In this document: piece after piece, positions 8,911-21,100 of the stretch | How positions within the stretch are numbered: position 1 is the stretch's first letter | How the letters are laid out: every line of letters begins with the position of its first letter | Origin: a virus | Virus genome (UHGV): UHGV-0139780 | Length of the DNA stretch: 49,330 nucleotides | Direction: 5' to 3' (one strand) | Made by a program: the position numbers and the translations under genes | The notes under the pieces: generated by a model | The model's input: only the letters and a program-made list of their open reading frames with translations | The model's database searches: none | What the model was told of the DNA's origin: nothing

Positions 8911-9376
8911 AAAAGTTGATCGCACTTAAGCATAAGCTGGACGAAATGAAAGCTATGGGAACCAATGCAAAAAAAGAGGCATTGGCCAACATGGATGACT
9001 TCGAGCAAAGCATGGTTTCATTGATGCTCAACCCTTTCATTCGTTTTGGGGTAAAGAAATACAAAGTGACCGGAGTTCCCTGAGTACTGGAAGCCTAAAA
9101 CGCGAGCTAAGTTAGAGCGTTTAGGGTTGGTTGCAAACGTTTCTGAAACGAAGTGTTCGGCCAACTACCAGTTAACTGATAAAGGGAAAGTATTGCTACA
9201 GCAATTAGTAGAATCAGGAGTGTTAAAATGATTCCATACATCTCATTAGCTTTTATGGCGGGCTTCCTTATCGGCTTCGGCATCTGTCGTGACTTAATTA
9301 AGCAGGAACTTAAAACCAAAACACTGTGCATCGGAAAGCGTGTGTATCGAGTAGTTCATGAAACAAAGGTTAGAAA

Positions 9377-9667
9377 ATGAGCAATTTAACTTCTTGGGAA
9401 TGGTGGTTGGTCACCTATTTCTTAGCGGCCGGAGTCGCATTCGCCTTTTACGTAGGTCAGTTAGTCGTAAAACTGCTGCTGATGAAATTTGCCAGTCATA
9501 AACGTATCGATGATGGTCTGTGGCGTCTTGGCACCCTGGTGGAAACTCGCTACGGGCAACTTAAGGAGAACGAAACCATTACTATCCAAGCGAAACGATT
9601 CACTGCCACCATCACAAGAACACCTGATCGTAGAGTGGCCTTGATCAAAAAAGTCACAACCGAATAA
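9377..9667 (+). CDS. hypothetical small membrane protein
   Basis: 96 aa with N-terminal hydrophobic helix (WWLVTYFLAAGVAFAFYVGQLVV). Confidence 0.35.
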   Translation: MSNLTSWEWWLVTYFLAAGVAFAFYVGQLVVKLLLMKFASHKRIDDGLWRLGTLVETRYGQLKENETITIQAKRFTATITRTPDRRVALIKKVTTE

Positions 9668-9872
9668 AAACACGACGATAAGTATTTACTTACCTATCCT
9701 TTGTGTATAAGATGACTTTGTTTTCGTTGAGACGCGACTGTTTGAACTTAAATACAAGTGCAAACGAAGAAGTCTATCTGGCAGTAGCCTAATAAGCCAA
9801 ACACCAGCGAGGTCAGTTTCCAGCCTCGTTACCGAAATGGAACACACTGAGCGAGTGTGATTGCAGAACGCA

Positions 9873-9978
9873 GGAGGGAACATGAGTGTTCCCTCCGATG
9901 AAGTAACAGGATGGGCGGTTGGTATTTCAACTCCATATGACTCCCGGATTCTTAGCCTCTGACCGCCCATCCTGTTAC
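9873..9978. repeat. two adjacent perfect hairpins (10-bp stem/4-nt loop; 17-bp stem/41-nt loop) in an ORF-free region
   Basis: ggagggaaca tgag tgttccctcc at 9873-9896; gtaacaggatgggcggt at 9904-9920 pairs with accgcccatcctgttac at 9962-9978. Confidence 0.6.
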
Positions 9979-10053
9979 GTCATTTTGTTCAATTATGTCG
10001 TTTATACTGGGTTAAAAAGCGGCGACGTAGCCCGGCTGGTATGGTTAGCCAGC

Positions 10054-10176
10054 ACACAACGTTGAGGCCATTACATTTTTATCAATTCTAAGGTTCTGTT
10101 CACAGAGATACCGGCGAGCGTTGATATGTAACATGTTGGGCAAACATTCAATCGGAGTAGTGGCCTCAACGTTGTG
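10054..10176. repeat. 16-bp perfect inverted repeat with about 90-nt loop upstream of the tRNA cluster
   Basis: cacaacgttgaggcca (10054-10069) and tggcctcaacgttgtg (10161-10176). Confidence 0.6.
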
Positions 10177-10440
10177 AAGACAGGATAGTTGTGTAGGTTT
10201 AACCACTGTTGCCATTGGTGCCTGTTTTCACAACAAATGATTCCATACATCACATTGTATAAATTATAAAGTAGGTGCTGTCCTCAGAAACATCATCTAC
10301 TTAAAGATTTAGCCTTCTATTGAGCGAAGTCGAAAGCGTCTGGCACTAACGTAAAGTGCAAGTAGCGGTGCGTTTCCTGGCAGAAACTAACACCGCCGCG
10401 ATTGGCACTGTTGAGTAATAAATACTGTCAGTGCTGAATT

Positions 10441-10515
10441 GATGGTGTAGCTCAGCGGCAGAGCAGTTGGCTGTTAACCAACTGGTCGGTGGTTCGAATC
10501 CACCCACCATCGCCA
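10441..10515 (+). tRNA. tRNA-Asn (anticodon GTT)
   Basis: Cloverleaf by eye: acceptor gatggtg/caccatc, anticodon loop ctGTTaa, T-loop ggttcgaatcc, encoded CCA. Confidence 0.8.
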
Positions 10516-10520
10516 ATTTA

Positions 10521-10608
10521 GGGGAGTTAGTCCGTAGAGGTAGCGGGGTAGACTGTAAATCTACTGTCATTGCGACTCGGATGGTTCGACTCCATCACTC
10601 CCCACCAA
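10521..10608 (+). tRNA. tRNA-Tyr (anticodon GTA), long variable arm
   Basis: Acceptor ggggagt/actcccc, anticodon stem-loop tagac-tGTAaat-ctact, long variable arm, T-loop ggttcgactcc, CCA. Confidence 0.8.
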
Positions 10609-10611
10609 ATT

Positions 10612-10687
10612 GCCGGTTTAGCTCAGTTGGTAGAGCAGTCGCTTTGTAAGCGAATGGCCAGCGGTTCAAGTCCGTTAACCGGCACCA
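10612..10687 (+). tRNA. tRNA-Thr (anticodon TGT)
   Basis: Acceptor gccggtt/aaccggc, D-arm gctcagttggtagagc, anticodon loop ttTGTaa, T-loop ttcaagt, CCA. Confidence 0.65.
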
Positions 10688-10695
10688 CAACAATT

Positions 10696-10782
10696 GGAGA
10701 GTAGGGAGCATGGTGCTCAAACGGTCTTGAAAACCGTCCCATTGCGCAAGCGATGATGGTTCGATTCCATTACTCTCCGCCA
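10696..10782 (+). tRNA. tRNA-Ser (anticodon TGA), long variable arm
   Basis: Acceptor ggagagt/actctcc, anticodon stem-loop acggt-ctTGAaa-accgt, long variable arm, T-loop ggttcgattcc, CCA. Confidence 0.75.
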
Positions 10783-10784
10783 GC

Positions 10785-10862
10785 CACAGCGTTGAGCGGT
10801 TTGGCCTTTTAATCACCCAGATTAAGACTCCGCTAACATAAACCAGACCGCTCAACGCTGTG
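10785..10862. repeat. 16-bp perfect inverted repeat with 46-nt loop just after the last tRNA
   Basis: cacagcgttgagcggt (10785-10800) and accgctcaacgctgtg (10847-10862); arm sequence resembles the 10054/10161 repeat. Confidence 0.6.
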
Positions 10863-10936
10863 ATAGACAATTACTGCAGACGTTCTTACCATAGCTTACT
10901 AACATCCCAGCAACTCTTCTGTCAGCGCAAAATTCA

Positions 10937-10958
10937 AAGGGGCTTCGGCCCCTTTTTT
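10937..10958 (+). terminator. rho-independent terminator
   Basis: aaggggc ttcg gcccctt followed by tttttt. Confidence 0.7.
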
Positions 10959-10998
10959 GTAACTGAAATAGTCAAATCGAACTTTGTAAGGAGAAGTA

Positions 10999-11323: not shown

Positions 11324-11356
11324 AATGATTCCATACCTACTATGTATGGAATCATT
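11324..11356. promoter_or_regulatory. lox/dif-like candidate recombination site: 13-bp perfect inverted arms around a 7-bp spacer
   Basis: aatgattccatac ctactat gtatggaatcatt, about 100 bp upstream of the tyrosine recombinase gene. Confidence 0.4.
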
Positions 11357-11454: not shown

Positions 11455-12558
11455 ATGAAAAATAGCTTTGACAGAGCACGCGCTGCGGAGAACACCTCAA
11501 AAGAGGCGATTGAGTATCTCGAAAGAGCATCTCAAATGCAGGCCGTTATGATCTCCCAGGTCAGCAATGACATGAGATTCTCGGACGCATTCATGTTATT
11601 CACTCGCTTATCTCTGCTGATAACAAGACGTCGGCCAGAGATCGCTGTTCATTGTATTTTGATACATGTTTTGCCGCACATTGCCGACGTAAAAGTAAGT
11701 GATATTAATAGGTTCATGGTGAACCAACTGGTCAACCCACTAATACTGGATGGCAAAATTGTTATGGGCCGCCGCGTTTTCTCTCTGATGAAGCAGTTCC
11801 TCAGCTGGTGCGCCTTCCAGGGGATGATCGACGTGTCACCGTTAAACGATATGTCACTGAACAAAGTTGCCGGTGGCGCAAAGCCCACGCCTCGCGAGCG
11901 GAAGCTGACCGACGCAGAGGTATGGGTGTTCTGGAATATATGGGACTACTTCAATGTGTGCGCTGGTACAAAATGGGCGGCCAGGCTATGCCTTGTATCG
12001 GCAAGACGACCTGACGAAGTTCTGCGGGCTAAAAAAAGTGAGTTCAATCTTAAGCGTGGGGTTTGGAATCAAGGCAAGAGAAACAAGTCAGCACGTGAGC
12101 ATTCGCTGCCTTTAAGCACATTAATGCGCACATGCATTGAAGAATTGTTCGAATACGGCAAAGACAGCCAGTGGCTTGTGCCTTCGAATAAAAAAATCGG
12201 GAAAGACCTTCCTATGTCTAAAGTGGCAATAGCCCAGGCATTACGTCGTATTCTGGACCGACCAGAACTGATGGAGCTTGAGCCATTTACACCCCGAGAT
12301 TTGCGCCGTACTGCGCGTAGTTACTTCCCAGCATTAGGCATAAGCCAGGAGGTATCACGCAAAATCATGAACCACAGTCTTGAGGGGATAGATCGGGTCT
12401 ACGATCGACACGATTATATGGACGAGATGCGAGACGCCTTAGAAAGTTTCTCGACGTACATCGCATCAATCGTAGAGCAACCGGATTTAGACGAAATTGA
12501 CCACAAATTCAAGGGAGATCGTCTATCAACAGAGCTTATTCGTGTAAATTTTTCATAG
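11455..12558 (+). CDS. tyrosine site-specific recombinase (integrase/resolvase family)
   Basis: C-terminal catalytic-domain signature: ARLCLVSARRPDEV, TPRDLRRTARS, NHSLEGIDRVYDRHDY; N-terminal start uncertain. Confidence 0.6.
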   Translation: MKNSFDRARAAENTSKEAIEYLERASQMQAVMISQVSNDMRFSDAFMLFTRLSLLITRRRPEIAVHCILIHVLPHIADVKVSDINRFMVNQLVNPLILDGKIVMGRRVFSLMKQFLSWCAFQGMIDVSPLNDMSLNKVAGGAKPTPRERKLTDAEVWVFWNIWDYFNVCAGTKWAARLCLVSARRPDEVLRAKKSEFNLKRGVWNQGKRNKSAREHSLPLSTLMRTCIEELFEYGKDSQWLVPSNKKIGKDLPMSKVAIAQALRRILDRPELMELEPFTPRDLRRTARSYFPALGISQEVSRKIMNHSLEGIDRVYDRHDYMDEMRDALESFSTYIASIVEQPDLDEIDHKFKGDRLSTELIRVNFS

Positions 12559-18167: not shown

Positions 18168-21100
18168 ATGAAGGCTCTGATGGTTCGAACTGACTTCTCT
18201 CTTGGGGAGTCGGCTCTAAAAGCAGAAAACGCGGTGAAGATTGCCAGAGAAGCTGGCTACACCGCTGTAATTTCGGCAGATAGCATGAATATTGCGAGTG
18301 TTATTCCACTACAACGTGCCGCTGGTGACGACATGGCGGTTATTTGTGGTGTGAAACTAAACATTGTTGATGATCCCACATACGAGCACCGGGCTAAACT
18401 TGCTAAAGAGTCTATGGGATGTATGGAATCATTAGAGCGTGGGCGGAACTACTCCTTTACCGCTCTAATTAAAAATGAGCAGGGATATCGAGACATCTGC
18501 GAACTAATGACGGCGGCCAACACACGAGAACAGTTCTACTTTGTACCGCGTCTCTCGCTCGAACAGTTGGTTTCTACATATGCCAAAGGCAACATCATCC
18601 TGCTAACTTCCGACATCGGTAGCGTGTTCCAACGCAACGATTTTGCAAAAATCATAAGCACATTGATTACAGCGGGTGGAAAAGACAACTTCTATAGTGT
18701 GATTTATCCGCACCCTACCCCATTCTACGACCAGATTAACGTCCGGGCGATGAAAGTCGCCAGCGCACTGAAAATAGAGCCAGTAGCGTTTTATCCCGCT
18801 TATTACGAATCGATCGACGATGCAGACATTAAAGACATTGCGCACATGGTTACGAACAACATCAAAATCGACCAGCCGCATCGTCTGCGTATCCCCCACC
18901 AGCGAGATAACGCCGTCAATGGTCGCCGCCATCTCCTTGAGGCGCTTAAAGCCTTCTCCGTTCGCATGGATGTGCCGGTAACAGCTGCAATGGCCTCAAC
19001 AACGCAGGATACCATTATCGATGCCTGCACATGGCGCTGGCATGAATTGCCACCAGCACTGCCAAAGATGGCAGACGACGAGCCTGCAACTCTGATGAAA
19101 CTGGCCGTTGCTGGGCTGCGTAAACGTCTTACCACAAAAGAGTTTGGCTACACACCACCGGCTTCTGAGAACAGGGTTTATGTTGAGCGACTTAAGTACG
19201 AAATGGATACGCTGACTCGCCTGGGATTCTGTGGTTACTTCCTGATGGTACGCGATCTGATGAATCACAGCCGTGAAACTGGCATTCCTGTCGGGCCTGG
19301 TCGTGGTTCCTCTGCTGGCTCTCTGGTGGCATGGTGCATAGGCATAACCAACGTCGACCCTATCCGTCACGGTCTTCTGTTTGAACGTTTCATCAACCCT
19401 GAGCGTCTCGACTTGCCAGATGCGGATTTGGACTTCAGCCAGGCACGTCGCCATGAGGTGATCGAGTATCTGAATGAACGCTACGGCGAAGATTACGTTG
19501 CAGGCATTCCGAACTTCACATATCTGGGCGCAGCCTCTGCACTACGTGACACTGCTCGTATTTATGGTGTGGAGTCCGCAGATATGGCGGTATCAAAAGA
19601 ACTGAAGAACGTCGAGGATGATAGCCTTCCACTGGAGGAGCTGCGCGAACAACTGGCAAGTCTCGACAAATACGCGACAAAATACCCTGATGCATTCAAT
19701 GCAGCCTGCAAGTTACAAAGCCTTATGCGTGGCTTTGGTAGACATGCGGCAGGGATGATCGTAGCAGGTGTTCCTCTGACAGAACGTACACCGGTTGAAC
19801 GACGTGGTGACGCGCGTTGTATCGCATTTGACAAGCGTTACTGCGAGGCTATGGGCCTAATTAAGCTGGACGTGCTTGGCCTGGCAACTCTCGATTTGCT
19901 CGATAGTGCAAAACGCTACATTAAAGAGAACACAGGTGAAGATATCAATCTTGATGCCATATCTCTTGAAGATCGCAAGGTGCTGGATGGTTTTGCTGCT
20001 GGGTACACTCAAGGTGTTTTCCAGCTTGAATCAGGCCCAATGCGCAAGCTGCTTAAAGATTTAGGTGGTGGAATTGAGCCAATGAGCTTTAAAACGGTTG
20101 TTGCTACGACTGCGCTCTTCCGGCCGGGACCAATTCAGTCAGGCATGTTGGATGATTATGTTTCTGTCGCCAAAGGCTTTATGACGCCGGAATCATTACA
20201 CCCCGTTCTTGATGAACTTACCGCAGAAACAAATGGCGTGATTCTCTATCAGGAACAGACGATGAACGCGACTCGATTGCTTGCTGGCTTCACAATGGCT
20301 GAAGCTGACGGTGTGCGTTCCGCAATCGGTAAGAAGAACATGGAAAAAATGAAGAGCATGGGCGAGAAGTTCATCGTTCAGGCTCAAGCTGGCTGGATAG
20401 ACGTTGAGCTGGAAGATGGCACTACACAGCGCATTCACCGTGCGGAACATTTTAAATGCGAAGACGGAACCCTGAAAACTGTCGAAGAAGCACTTGAGCA
20501 CGGAGCAAAACTACCTATAAACGCAGTACGCGTTACAGCGTCACATCCAGGGCTATCAGAGATGAAGGCGAAGGAGATCTGGACTGCATTCGAGAAAAAT
20601 GGTGCCTACCAGTTCAACAAATCACACTCTGTTGCTTACTCCTTAATCAGTTATCAATCTATGTGGTTGAAAACTCATTATCCCGCAGAGTTTTTCGCTG
20701 CTGCTCTCACTATTCTTGGCGAAGATAAACACCAGGGGCTGGTTAAAGATGCGCTGACCTATGGTATTCGCGTATTGCCACCAGACGTTAACGTGTCATC
20801 TAACCGAATCGAGATCCGCACGCTTGAAGATGGCAGCCAGGTGCTGTATGCGCCCTTCTCTGCTGTGAAGGGGTGTTCTGAGAATGGCTGCCAAGCCATC
20901 ATGAGAGCGCGAGAAAAAGTTGGCGGCAAATTCGAGTCACTGGCGCAATTCGAAGAAGCTGTCGAGAAACGTTCCTGTAATAGTCGAGTGCGCGAATCAC
21001 TGCAAAAAGTAGGTGCGTTTGCATCCATAGAGCCAGGTAGTCTGCCAGCAACTGATCCAGAGCGTCTCCGCGACCAGGCAGAATTGATGGGAAACCTTGT

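Follow-up and report, generated by a model that had tools for sequence, protein, structure and literature searches.

What occupies the long gene-free stretch in front of the transfer RNA (tRNA) genes of an SSU5-family phage-plasmid? The question is raised by virus genome UHGV-0139780, a stretch of 49,330 nucleotides (nt), the whole of which is referred to as the window and which sequence comparison identifies as part of such a phage-plasmid. An earlier note had drawn attention to a tRNA cluster set in a region free of open reading frames (ORFs) and full of long perfect hairpins. The answer developed here is that positions 9720 to about 10253 form a conserved, highly structured RNA gene on the plus strand, and that the 5' third of this gene (9738-9888) is a message module derived from transfer-messenger RNA (tmRNA). 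What might such a module be for? The reading preferred here, put forward tentatively from sequence comparison, is that its tag frame may serve as a template on stalled ribosomes, in which case the RNA would be a phage-encoded, message-only tmRNA derivative that feeds ribosome rescue. The accepted view of tmRNA is that it requires a tRNA-like and a message part, joined in a single molecule or as a base-paired pair, and this family has kept a decodable-looking tag frame for a very long time without an acceptor domain. To keep a tag in this way implies either a novel means of delivering a rescue template or some other phage use of the tmRNA body.

A structured RNA gene on the plus strand

The inverted repeats that first marked the region are present where they had been reported, with perfect cores of 10 base pairs (bp; 9873-9882/9887-9896), 17 bp (9903-9919/9962-9978), 16 bp (10055-10070/10161-10176) and 16 bp (10785-10800/10847-10862), and allowing one mismatch lengthens repeats to 22, 20 and 20 bp. 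That stems of this length are unlikely by chance is confirmed by 300 Markov shuffles of the 1.2-kb region, which gave on average 0.01 (maximum 1) perfect repeats of 12 bp or longer, where the real sequence has three; the whole window of 49 kb holds seven. A further hairpin (10171-10184/10221-10234) had gone unnoticed, as had the features between 9760 and 9859, namely a tmRNA-type tag frame, a stop-codon hairpin and a pseudoknot. The parts of the RNA gene are as follows.

9685-9713, plus strand: putative sigma-70 promoter read from the sequence, TTTACT (9685-9690), a 17-nt spacer and TAAGAT (9708-9713)
9720-9759, plus strand: 5' leader, consisting of GUUUUCG, a small hairpin CGU-UGAG-ACG (9725-9734), CGAC and an A/U-rich stretch
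9760-9795, plus strand: tmRNA-type tag frame GCA AAC GAA GAA GTC TAT CTG GCA GTA GCC TAA TAA, reading ANEEVYLAVA and two stops
9778-9807, plus strand: H5-like hairpin, CUGG/CCAG with an inner GC/GC and both stop codons in the loop
9808-9842, plus strand: H-type pseudoknot PKa, stem 1 9808-9812/9824-9828, stem 2 9818-9822/9838-9842
9843-9859, plus strand: hairpin S3, CACAC-UGAGCGA-GUGUG, with compensatory pairs
9873-9896, plus strand: hairpin I5, a 10-bp perfect stem with a UGAG loop, 5 of the 10 pairs compensatory among SSU5-type relatives
9897-9984, plus strand: hairpin I1, a 23-pair stem with a 42-nt loop, three compensatory pairs and several G-U changes
9994-10053, plus strand: hairpin D (9994-10000/10023-10029) and hairpin E (GCUGG-UAUGGUUAG-CCAGC, 10035-10053)
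10055-10176, plus strand: hairpin I2, a 20-bp stem on a CACAACGUUGAG base with an 82-nt variable loop
10171-10234, plus strand: hairpin I4, GUUGUGAAGACAGG/CCUGUUUUCACAAC, which has GUUGUG in common with the 3' arm of I2

Are these helices features of an RNA, and if so from which strand? Across nine aligned SSU5-type sequences (the window, SSU5, pMT1, Enterobacter CP102, a Klebsiella plasmid and four IMG/VR contigs) the 71 proposed pairs are 94.8% paired, as against 32-45% when one partner is slid along, and 12 pairs are compensatory: five in I5, three in I1 and the rest in the pseudoknot and the small hairpin. In 39 cores of the lambdoid and Felix types, 25 pairs are 95.9% paired (30-41% with partners slid) and seven are compensatory, both stems of PKa included. 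Many of the G-U pairs in the SSU5-type helices would be A-C mismatches on the opposite strand, and the structure is therefore that of a plus-strand RNA; conservation of the stems in related genomes, on which the earlier note had partly staked its proposal, is borne out by helices kept through compensatory and G-U changes on this strand only. The 534-nt RNA from 9720 to 10253 has a minimum free energy of -190 kcal/mol (z = -6.5 against shuffled sequences).

The same evidence bears on the very improbable reading that the repeats act at the DNA level, as protein-binding or cruciform sites of a plasmid origin, of partition or incompatibility, or of recombination. The host of the element is indeed a plasmid-prophage, and the region adjoins a copy of a dispersed 13-mer with the look of a DNA site, AATGATTCCATAC, which also makes a palindrome in front of the integrase gene. 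Yet the helices tolerate G-U and not A-C, which points to single-stranded plus-strand RNA, covariation of a pseudoknot would be meaningless for DNA, iteron-like direct repeats are absent, and the core is common to non-plasmid and virulent phages. As for the kind of RNA, the idea of small structured RNAs survives in so far as the stems are RNA helices, but they belong to a single large RNA gene rather than to separate small hairpin RNAs; the companion idea of degenerate tRNA-like elements holds to the extent that the homologues of two of the stems bear tRNA-like caps in other phages.

The promoter block is conserved in all SSU5-type relatives, with TATGAT and TATAGT as variants of the -10 element, and equivalent blocks stand at the same place in Citrobacter phage Mijalis (TTGACA-17-TATAGT) and in the L010 type (TTGACA-17-TAGATT). 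A sigma-70-like promoter therefore occupies this position relative to GUUUUCG in three phage groups, and transcription is predicted from the sequence to start at about G9720, the G of GUUUUCG. This motif (GTTTTCG in DNA) is invariant across 48 distinct cores. The small hairpin behind it shows a compensatory change, CGC-TGA-GCG, in CP102, and the A/U-rich stretch ends in the resume-codon context UACAAGU; ARAGORN labels tacaagtgcaaacgaaga as 'resume consensus'.

Downstream of the leader, the H5-like hairpin is invariant and 100% paired in 39 plus 8 distinct sequences. PKa carries three compensatory pairs in stem 1 and two in stem 2 among the lambdoid and Felix types, where 99.5-100% of cells are paired, and two and one, respectively, among the SSU5 types. 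In the lambdoid and Felix types the loop of S3 contributes to a second pseudoknot stem, the register of which shifts with matching insertions (GCCCTGA/TCAGGGC, GCCCAC/GTGGGC); within the window's own SSU5 group this second stem finds no support. Hairpin I1 contains a conserved A.G mismatch (9902/9979) and a conserved CCCGG in its loop, with 94.6% of cells paired. The D and E elements are conserved in nine of nine SSU5-type sequences, hairpin E being invariant, and hairpin D possibly forms a pseudoknot with 10030-10034, a stem at which the alignment shifts. Compensatory variants of I2 include GACC/GGTC and ATTAC/GTAGT versus ACTG/CAGT, and I4 appears in L007/KpT877 as GTTGTGGCCACGG/CGTGGCCACAAC, a compensatory variant at several positions. 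I2 is missing from the L014/CP102 subgroup, which has an ORF of about 72 amino acids (aa) in its stead. This ORF (MQDVDELKQAAATLLTKAIQQYRGDYG...) replaces I2 to I4 at about 1560-1780 of L128, the Enterobacter sp. CP102 plasmid, and at the equivalent place in L014, and its TGA stop lies inside a conserved AAATGATTCC motif.

The tag reading frame

What marks the frame at 9760-9795 as a tag? An internal frame runs, with no initiation signal, from a resume codon to a pair of stops, the stops lie in the H5 hairpin, albeit one whose pairing is invariant, and PKa stands for the pseudoknots (PK2-PK4) that follow a tmRNA tag. All 126 of the 126 collected members have ten stop-free codons of the form AN[EDS][EDNT][MVQTAS][YF]LAVA, with one AK exception, the last four codons being partly fixed by the search pattern, which combined the end of the tag with H5. 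ARAGORN calls the tag ANDNVFLAVA with two stops in Mijalis and, at relaxed settings, ANEEVYLAVA with two stops in the window. The tag of E. coli tmRNA is ANDENYALAA.

Variation is concentrated at third codon positions and at codon 5, the only free position, and replacements are of the D/E and Y/F kind. Within the tag frame the ratio of non-synonymous to synonymous polymorphism (pN/pS) comes to 0.57, while the two other frames give 1.59 and 0.91. Permutation of the 14 variable columns left every sequence free of stops in only 6.8% of arrangements, and 0 of 2000 were as conservative as the observed order (mean BLOSUM62 score +0.93 versus -1.38 +/- 0.47). Judged on these comparisons, variation in the tag behaves as it does in translated sequence.

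Could the region encode an ordinary protein that was missed? The judgement that it contains no credible ORF holds good: the longest is 94 aa, and positions and lengths are not conserved among homologues. The candidates would be this 94-aa ORF on the minus strand (9686-9970) or a 26-aa ORF that starts at ATG 9712 and ends in the tag, and such ORFs do exist in the window, with minus-strand ORFs of 56-94 aa overlapping the core in several relatives. That either is a gene has next to no probability, given that the starts vary as the lengths do and that the antisense frames over the core are without purifying selection (pN/pS 1.4-2.1) or contain stops. In this window only, ATG 9712 is in frame with the tag (MTLFSLRRDCLNLNTSANEEVYLAVA, 9712-9792); normal translation of the tag from it was rejected, since SSU5 and other groups either lack the codon or have it in another frame, and it precedes the predicted start. 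An overlapping ATG/GTG frame (MQT...) was also set aside, as it is not conserved at the amino-acid level.

A family carried by mobile elements

How widely is the RNA found? Escherichia phages CMS-2020a and Cyrano and some 190 E. coli plasmids match the region 9600-10960 at 94-97% identity; over its first 500 nt the identity is about 78-80% to Salmonella phage SSU5, Yersinia pestis pMT1 and plasmids of Klebsiella, Enterobacter and Citrobacter. SSU5 and Cyrano have an equivalent unannotated gap between a small hypothetical gene and tRNA-Asn. A distant-mode BLAST search with the gap returned matches of about 100 nt, 74-77% identical, from spacers that carry no annotation in phages unrelated to this one. 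They lie within the tRNA cluster of Felixounavirus and Mooglevirus phages, 200 nt ahead of the single tRNA that Klebsiella phage Carvaje has, and, in HK620, between pR'/qut and the late terminator, the slot in which Stx phages carry rare-codon tRNA genes.

The conserved core of about 150-230 nt occurs in at least 120 IMG/VR contigs (found with the tag-end and H5 pattern), in Felixounaviruses, in HK620-like prophages (in the pR' late leader) and in pMT1; the 126 sequences collected form 50 clusters at 88% identity. Records with the family number 317 for phages and 773 for plasmids, and 350 of 5426 complete E. coli genomes (about 6%) carry the element in prophages and plasmids. Only 3 of 185,579 species-representative genomes have it, all Enterobacteriaceae, and it is therefore an RNA of mobile elements rather than a host gene. 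A covariance model, R1, built from 39 cores outside the SSU5 group, matches the window once (9738-9888, plus strand, 74.3 bits, E = 1.4e-13) and each relative once, while E. coli ssrA reaches no more than 14.3 bits; the sequence likeness to ssrA goes no further than the tag, and a global duplex prediction against ssrA was uninformative. The element is annotated in none of the records examined, the E. coli matches listed included, and no prior description of the family was found in the literature searched, most subscription-journal papers lying outside that scope. Beside the element in one relative stands the annotated name 'C-type natriuretic protein'.

Beyond the core, a long hairpin of consensus GGUAAGAGCAU...AGUGCUCUUUCC ('hairpin B') follows in all groups and on sequence reading has I5 as its counterpart in the window. 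What comes next differs: in Mijalis a real tRNA, tRNA-Arg, 3 nt after the end of the core; at many lambdoid loci a tRNA-like domain ('domain C'); and in the SSU5 group I1, to which that group adds hairpins D, E, I2 and I4. The lambdoid domain has a conserved closing helix, UUGUGGUG/CACCACAA, with a D-like arm and a T-like arm, and some examples have canonical T-loops and ACCA ends; at lambdoid-type loci GUUUUCG pairs with an upstream strand of a long hairpin. The lambdoid late leaders (L003 HK620 at 2330-2830; L021, L112, L117, L010 and others) contain repeated long hairpins of variable tip, with a conserved middle GGTAAGAGCAT...AGTGCTCTTTCC that shows compensatory variants, some of the tips being tRNA-like with a T-arm GGGTTCGAATCCC. 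They also contain a tRNA-like module closed by TTGTGGTG/CACCACAA, and together these elements make up a modular, ornate RNA of about 650 nt between pR' and the late terminator. In pMT1 (L127, Y. pestis KIM10+, 1240-1720) the RNA gene is near-identical to that of SSU5 and is cut just past I2 by caf1R and the F1 capsule locus, with loss of tRNA-Asn.

This distribution bears on the view that the core is an inert relic of an old phage tmRNA and that the region is simply the structured 5' leader or punctuation of a tRNA operon, there for processing by RNase III and RNase P or for protection from exonucleases. Such a view would account for the long, near-perfect hairpins of 20-23 bp that flank the tRNA block (I2 upstream, I3 after tRNA-Ser), for hairpin tips that vary freely, and for the modular, replaceable nature of the segments outside the core, as where an ORF takes the place of I2-I4 in one subgroup or where pMT1 lacks everything past I2. 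It is nevertheless unlikely, as a relic would not stay intact across Felixounaviruses, lambdoid prophages, Carvajevirus and SSU5-like plasmids, with a tag free of stops in every member, an invariant resume context and pseudoknot pairs that covary. Same-strand tRNAs lie within about 1.2 kb at 77 of the 126 loci, but the other 49 have no tRNA within -700 to +1200 nt and so keep the core without one nearby.

The missing tRNA-like domain

If the RNA is to act in ribosome rescue, where is its tRNA-like domain? Several searches came back empty, and together with the other points gathered here they weigh against the proposal that the tag is used as a rescue template. Default ARAGORN finds no tmRNA, and with it no tRNA-like domain, in the window, and neither Rfam at gathering thresholds nor a scan for a T-arm with a 7-bp acceptor stem yields anything there beyond the four tRNAs. 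Rfam (at gathering thresholds) and ARAGORN, run over 100 of the 103 kb of SSU5, report tRNA-Asn and neither a tmRNA nor a tRNA-like domain. Regular-expression searches located no conserved cis partner of the 5' GUUUUCG followed by CCA, nor, in the window or SSU5, a CG[AG]4C-N-CCA partner preceded by a T-arm. To our knowledge, every tmRNA uses a G3-U70 pair for alanine charging; the window offers no acceptor stem in which to seek it, and the tRNA-likes of other phages have U3-A70 or A3-U70. Rfam tmRNA models score 15-30 bits, far under their cut-offs of 47-84: in the window beta_tmRNA reaches 16.7-19.6 bits (cut-off 84) and tmRNA_permuted 15 bits (cut-off 47), and the best score anywhere is 29.8 bits. 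The tag region accounts for these sub-threshold matches, which were obtained in the window, Mijalis, Carvaje, L010, L021, L031 and L091.

The 5' side is equally spare. With transcription predicted to start 40-55 nt before the resume codon, there would be no room for an acceptor strand, helix 2 and PK1, and this interval holds one or two small hairpins and no long-range helix. The RNA is thus not a canonical tmRNA, and in the absence of a tRNA-like domain the known mechanism of trans-translation cannot start. The remaining adverse points are smaller. The promoter was missed by the consensus scan because it scores only 8 of 12, and the terminator proposed below was likewise not called; the contrast in pN/pS is modest, and the last tag codons are also under the pairing constraint of H5; and of the two small RNAs on pMT1 in one Y. 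pestis small-RNA sequencing catalogue, neither maps to the element.

Several candidates for the missing part, or for the origin of the RNA, were rejected. The tmRNA halves that ARAGORN proposes in the window at its ps60 setting lie inside the upstream coding sequence and a non-conserved stretch. The 'permuted tmRNA' that it calls in Mijalis takes its 5' half from part of tRNA-Lys, although the tag itself is real. An attP copy of ssrA was considered, since phages that integrate at ssrA carry its 3' end, and was rejected because the acceptor 3' end is absent, the RNA has a putative promoter of its own and it occurs in virulent phages.

Mijalis (L004) has two further tRNA-like features, given here in ARAGORN's positions, from which the locus coordinates of the annotation table are offset by 58 nt. 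At about 1978-2060 there is a permuted tRNA-like sequence (T-arm, ACCCTTC, G, CCA, AACA, GAAGGGT, TA, D-arm), in which the 3' half, the one used in the ARAGORN call, is followed after 4 nt by the matching 5' half. Directly after tRNA-Arg, at 2816-2936, is an unannotated 121-nt tRNA-like sequence with a 7-bp acceptor stem and an encoded GCCA end, the T-loop of which, TTCAACT, is that of E. coli tmRNA, and in which an insert of about 85 nt replaces the D and anticodon arms. Within this insert is AACGAAA, and it is complementary to GUUUUCGUU, an invariant sequence at the 5' end of the message RNA; the match could be due to chance.

Host factors that recognise the tmRNA body include ribosomal protein S1 and RNase R, and an RNA lacking the acceptor domain might act on them without ever being decoded. 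In this improbable alternative the RNA imitates the tmRNA body (message region, H5 and pseudoknots) as a decoy that diverts a host factor, or soaks up a nuclease or defence system directed against tmRNA, with the effect of modulating ribosome rescue in the infected host. A pure mimic would be expected to lack a tRNA-like domain, the nucleotide sequence of H5 and of the 3' half of the tag hardly varies, and there is a reciprocal precedent in the remnant of phage DS6A, which consists of the tRNA-like domain only and is reported to inhibit tmRNA (PMC4131195, PMC11915505). Mimicry of nucleotides, however, does not predict the codon-periodic, amino-acid-conservative changes seen in tag codons 3-6, the tag is consistently unlike that of the host (LAVA versus ALAA), and the resemblance to the host RNA is slight, R1 giving E. 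coli ssrA only 14 bits.

A possible route into ribosome rescue

How, then, might the tag come to be used as a rescue template? The RNA would be made from its own promoter, from the G of GUUUUCG, as the leader of a single transcript that would take in all four tRNAs and hairpin I3 and end at the terminator-like hairpin of 10939-10958; co-transcription with the tRNAs followed by processing is inferred. This transcript would be cut into a stable message RNA and the tRNAs by RNase P, acting at the tRNAs, and probably by RNase III, acting at the 20-23-bp hairpins, which are likely to be RNase III or stability elements. An RNase III site needs about two turns of double-stranded RNA, and stems of 20-23 bp, as predicted sites, fit that size. 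The tag would then be decoded on stalled ribosomes, the phage supplying an alternative template for trans-translation, so that rescued chains would end in ...YLAVA in place of the host's ...YALAA. Entry to the ribosome would have to come from a tRNA-like partner or from the host tmRNA-SmpB machinery, and ribosome rescue would in this way be coupled to the phage-borne supply of tRNAs.

A more specific form of this proposal, possible but on the doubtful side, is a split rescue system in which the message-only module reaches stalled ribosomes by way of a partner, in trans or in cis on its 3' side, and rewrites the tag; candidate partners are the likes of host tmRNA-SmpB or a neighbouring tRNA or tRNA-like domain. 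Were this so, it would be a mode of trans-translation without known precedent, and the fate of rescued proteins would be altered during infection or plasmid carriage. Carriers of the element include SSU5-like phage-plasmids of Klebsiella, Salmonella and Enterobacter, plasmid pMT1, HK620-like prophages and the Felix O1 group, some phages of which serve in typing and therapy. Being linked to tRNA genes physically, and probably in transcription too, the element also bears on the long-standing question of why phages have such genes. Annotation pipelines should drop the spurious ORF calls made at it.

The tRNA genes and neighbouring sites

The four tRNA genes that had been placed at 10441-10782 are identified by ARAGORN and Rfam as Asn, Tyr, Thr and Ser, all on the plus strand. 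They and the features around them are the following.

10236-10251, plus strand: conserved motif AATGATTCCATACATC, invariant in SSU5-type relatives
10254-10440, plus strand: variable leader of the tRNA block with local hairpins, conserved in part among relatives
10441-10515, plus strand: tRNA-Asn (GTT), ARAGORN; Rfam tRNA 73 bits
10521-10607, plus strand: tRNA-Tyr (GTA), ARAGORN; Rfam tRNA 45.5 bits
10612-10687, plus strand: tRNA-Thr (TGT), ARAGORN; Rfam tRNA 69 bits
10696-10782, plus strand: tRNA-Ser (TGA), ARAGORN; Rfam tRNA-Sec 45.1 bits, just below the cut-off of 47
10785-10862, plus strand: hairpin I3, a 20-bp stem on a CACAGCGUUGAG base, beginning 2 nt past the CCA of tRNA-Ser
10939-10958, plus strand: intrinsic-terminator-like hairpin GGGGC-TTCG-GCCCC followed by TTTTTT, read from the sequence and missing from the consensus-scan output

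tRNA-Asn is the sole tRNA found in every SSU5-type locus, and close relatives fill the slot with Asn only, Asn-Ser, Asn-Thr-Ser, Asn-Tyr-Thr or Asn-Tyr-Thr-Ser. The near-invariant second codon of the tag is AAC (Asn), and tRNA-Asn is always in the SSU5-type slot. A consensus scan found no plus-strand terminator between 9415 and the tRNAs, and the hairpin at 10939-10958 is the likely end of the RNA and tRNA transcription unit.

Hairpin I3 is a sister copy of I2 and is found only at loci with tRNA-Ser. The arms CACAACGTTGAG and CACAGCGTTGAG, noted before as near-identical, are confined window-wide to these two hairpins. A module made up of tRNA-Ser and the start of I3 is 89% identical in the unrelated phage D6 (hit H29). 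In its left flank (GCCAGCACACAACGTTGAG), I2 is similar to the 3' end of tRNA-Ser together with I3 (GCCAGCCACAGCGTTGAG), and from these sequences it looks as if the I2/I3 family of hairpins attaches after CCA ends.

At the 3' edge of the structured RNA sits one copy of the 13-mer AATGATTCCATAC, invariant across SSU5-type relatives. The window has five exact copies, at 9227-9239, 10236-10248 and 11324-11336 on the plus strand and at 11344-11356 and 18421-18433 on the minus strand, two of which, 7 nt apart, make up a perfect palindrome (11324-11356) that lies some 100 nt in front of the integrase gene (11455-12558). By its arrangement the 13-mer looks like a recombinase or regulator binding site, and the motif AATGATTCCATACATC is probably a DNA-level site outside the RNA fold. 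A complementarity of AUUCCAUACAUC to helix 2 of E. coli tmRNA was dropped, the motif being a dispersed DNA 13-mer that occurs in both orientations.

Comparison with known systems

How does the RNA compare with what is already known? With one-piece tmRNA (SsrA; RF00023) it shares the resume codon GCA in an A/U-rich context, a ten-codon tag that starts with AN(D/E), has an aromatic sixth residue and closes on hydrophobic Ala/Val, and double stops inside the H5 hairpin followed by pseudoknots. The SSU5-type part conserved in all subgroups, 9720-10053, amounts to about 340 nt, compared with 363 nt for E. coli tmRNA. Unlike one-piece tmRNA, the phage RNA has no acceptor stem, T-arm, encoded or addable CCA, or G3-U70 pair, and no recognisable helix 2 or PK1, just a small hairpin before the resume codon; its tag ends in LAVA and not ALAA, and it is encoded only on phages and plasmids.

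In two-piece tmRNA (alpha- and beta-proteobacteria and cyanobacteria; RF01849-51, RF04321) the message likewise lies on an RNA piece apart from the aminoacylated 3' end, and the resume context AUAAAU|GCAAACGA and the tail GCA GUA GCC UAA of the phage RNA are closer to the permuted-tmRNA consensus than E. coli ssrA is. The coding piece of a true two-piece tmRNA, however, starts with the 5' acceptor strand, and the acceptor piece lies just upstream in one precursor. The phage gene is not permuted in this sense: in three phage groups GUUUUCG comes straight after a promoter-like block, and a search of 100 of the 103 kb of SSU5 yielded no acceptor piece.

The long hairpins recall the RNase III processing hairpins of polycistronic transcripts, such as those of the T7 early region and the lambda N leader and sib. 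Like them, they are near-perfect or singly mismatched stems of 20-23 bp between functional RNA units, one of which (I3) stands directly after a tRNA 3' end. They differ in that several have large conserved or variable loops, with tRNA-like caps in other phages, and I5 and I1 look like integral arms of the RNA rather than spacers.

Stable or large non-coding RNAs that accompany phage tRNA genes, and undergo processing along with them, are known in GOLLD, ROOL and the species 1 and 2 RNAs of the T4 tRNA cluster. The RNA described here is also an ornate, structured RNA next to or among phage tRNA genes, but it has no sequence or Rfam similarity to these, and we know of none among them with a tmRNA-type tag frame.

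The closest parallel lies in the tmRNA genes, or parts of them, carried by other phages. Those listed in surveys of the tmRNA database come only from mycobacteriophages (Bxz1 and others) and Bacillus phage G, and mycobacteriophage DS6A has a tmRNA remnant, as described above, which demonstrates that a partial tmRNA can persist and act on host trans-translation (PMC4131195, PMC11915505). The known phage tmRNAs are complete and DS6A retains the tRNA-like half, whereas the enterobacterial family, which is not in those surveys, represents the message half.

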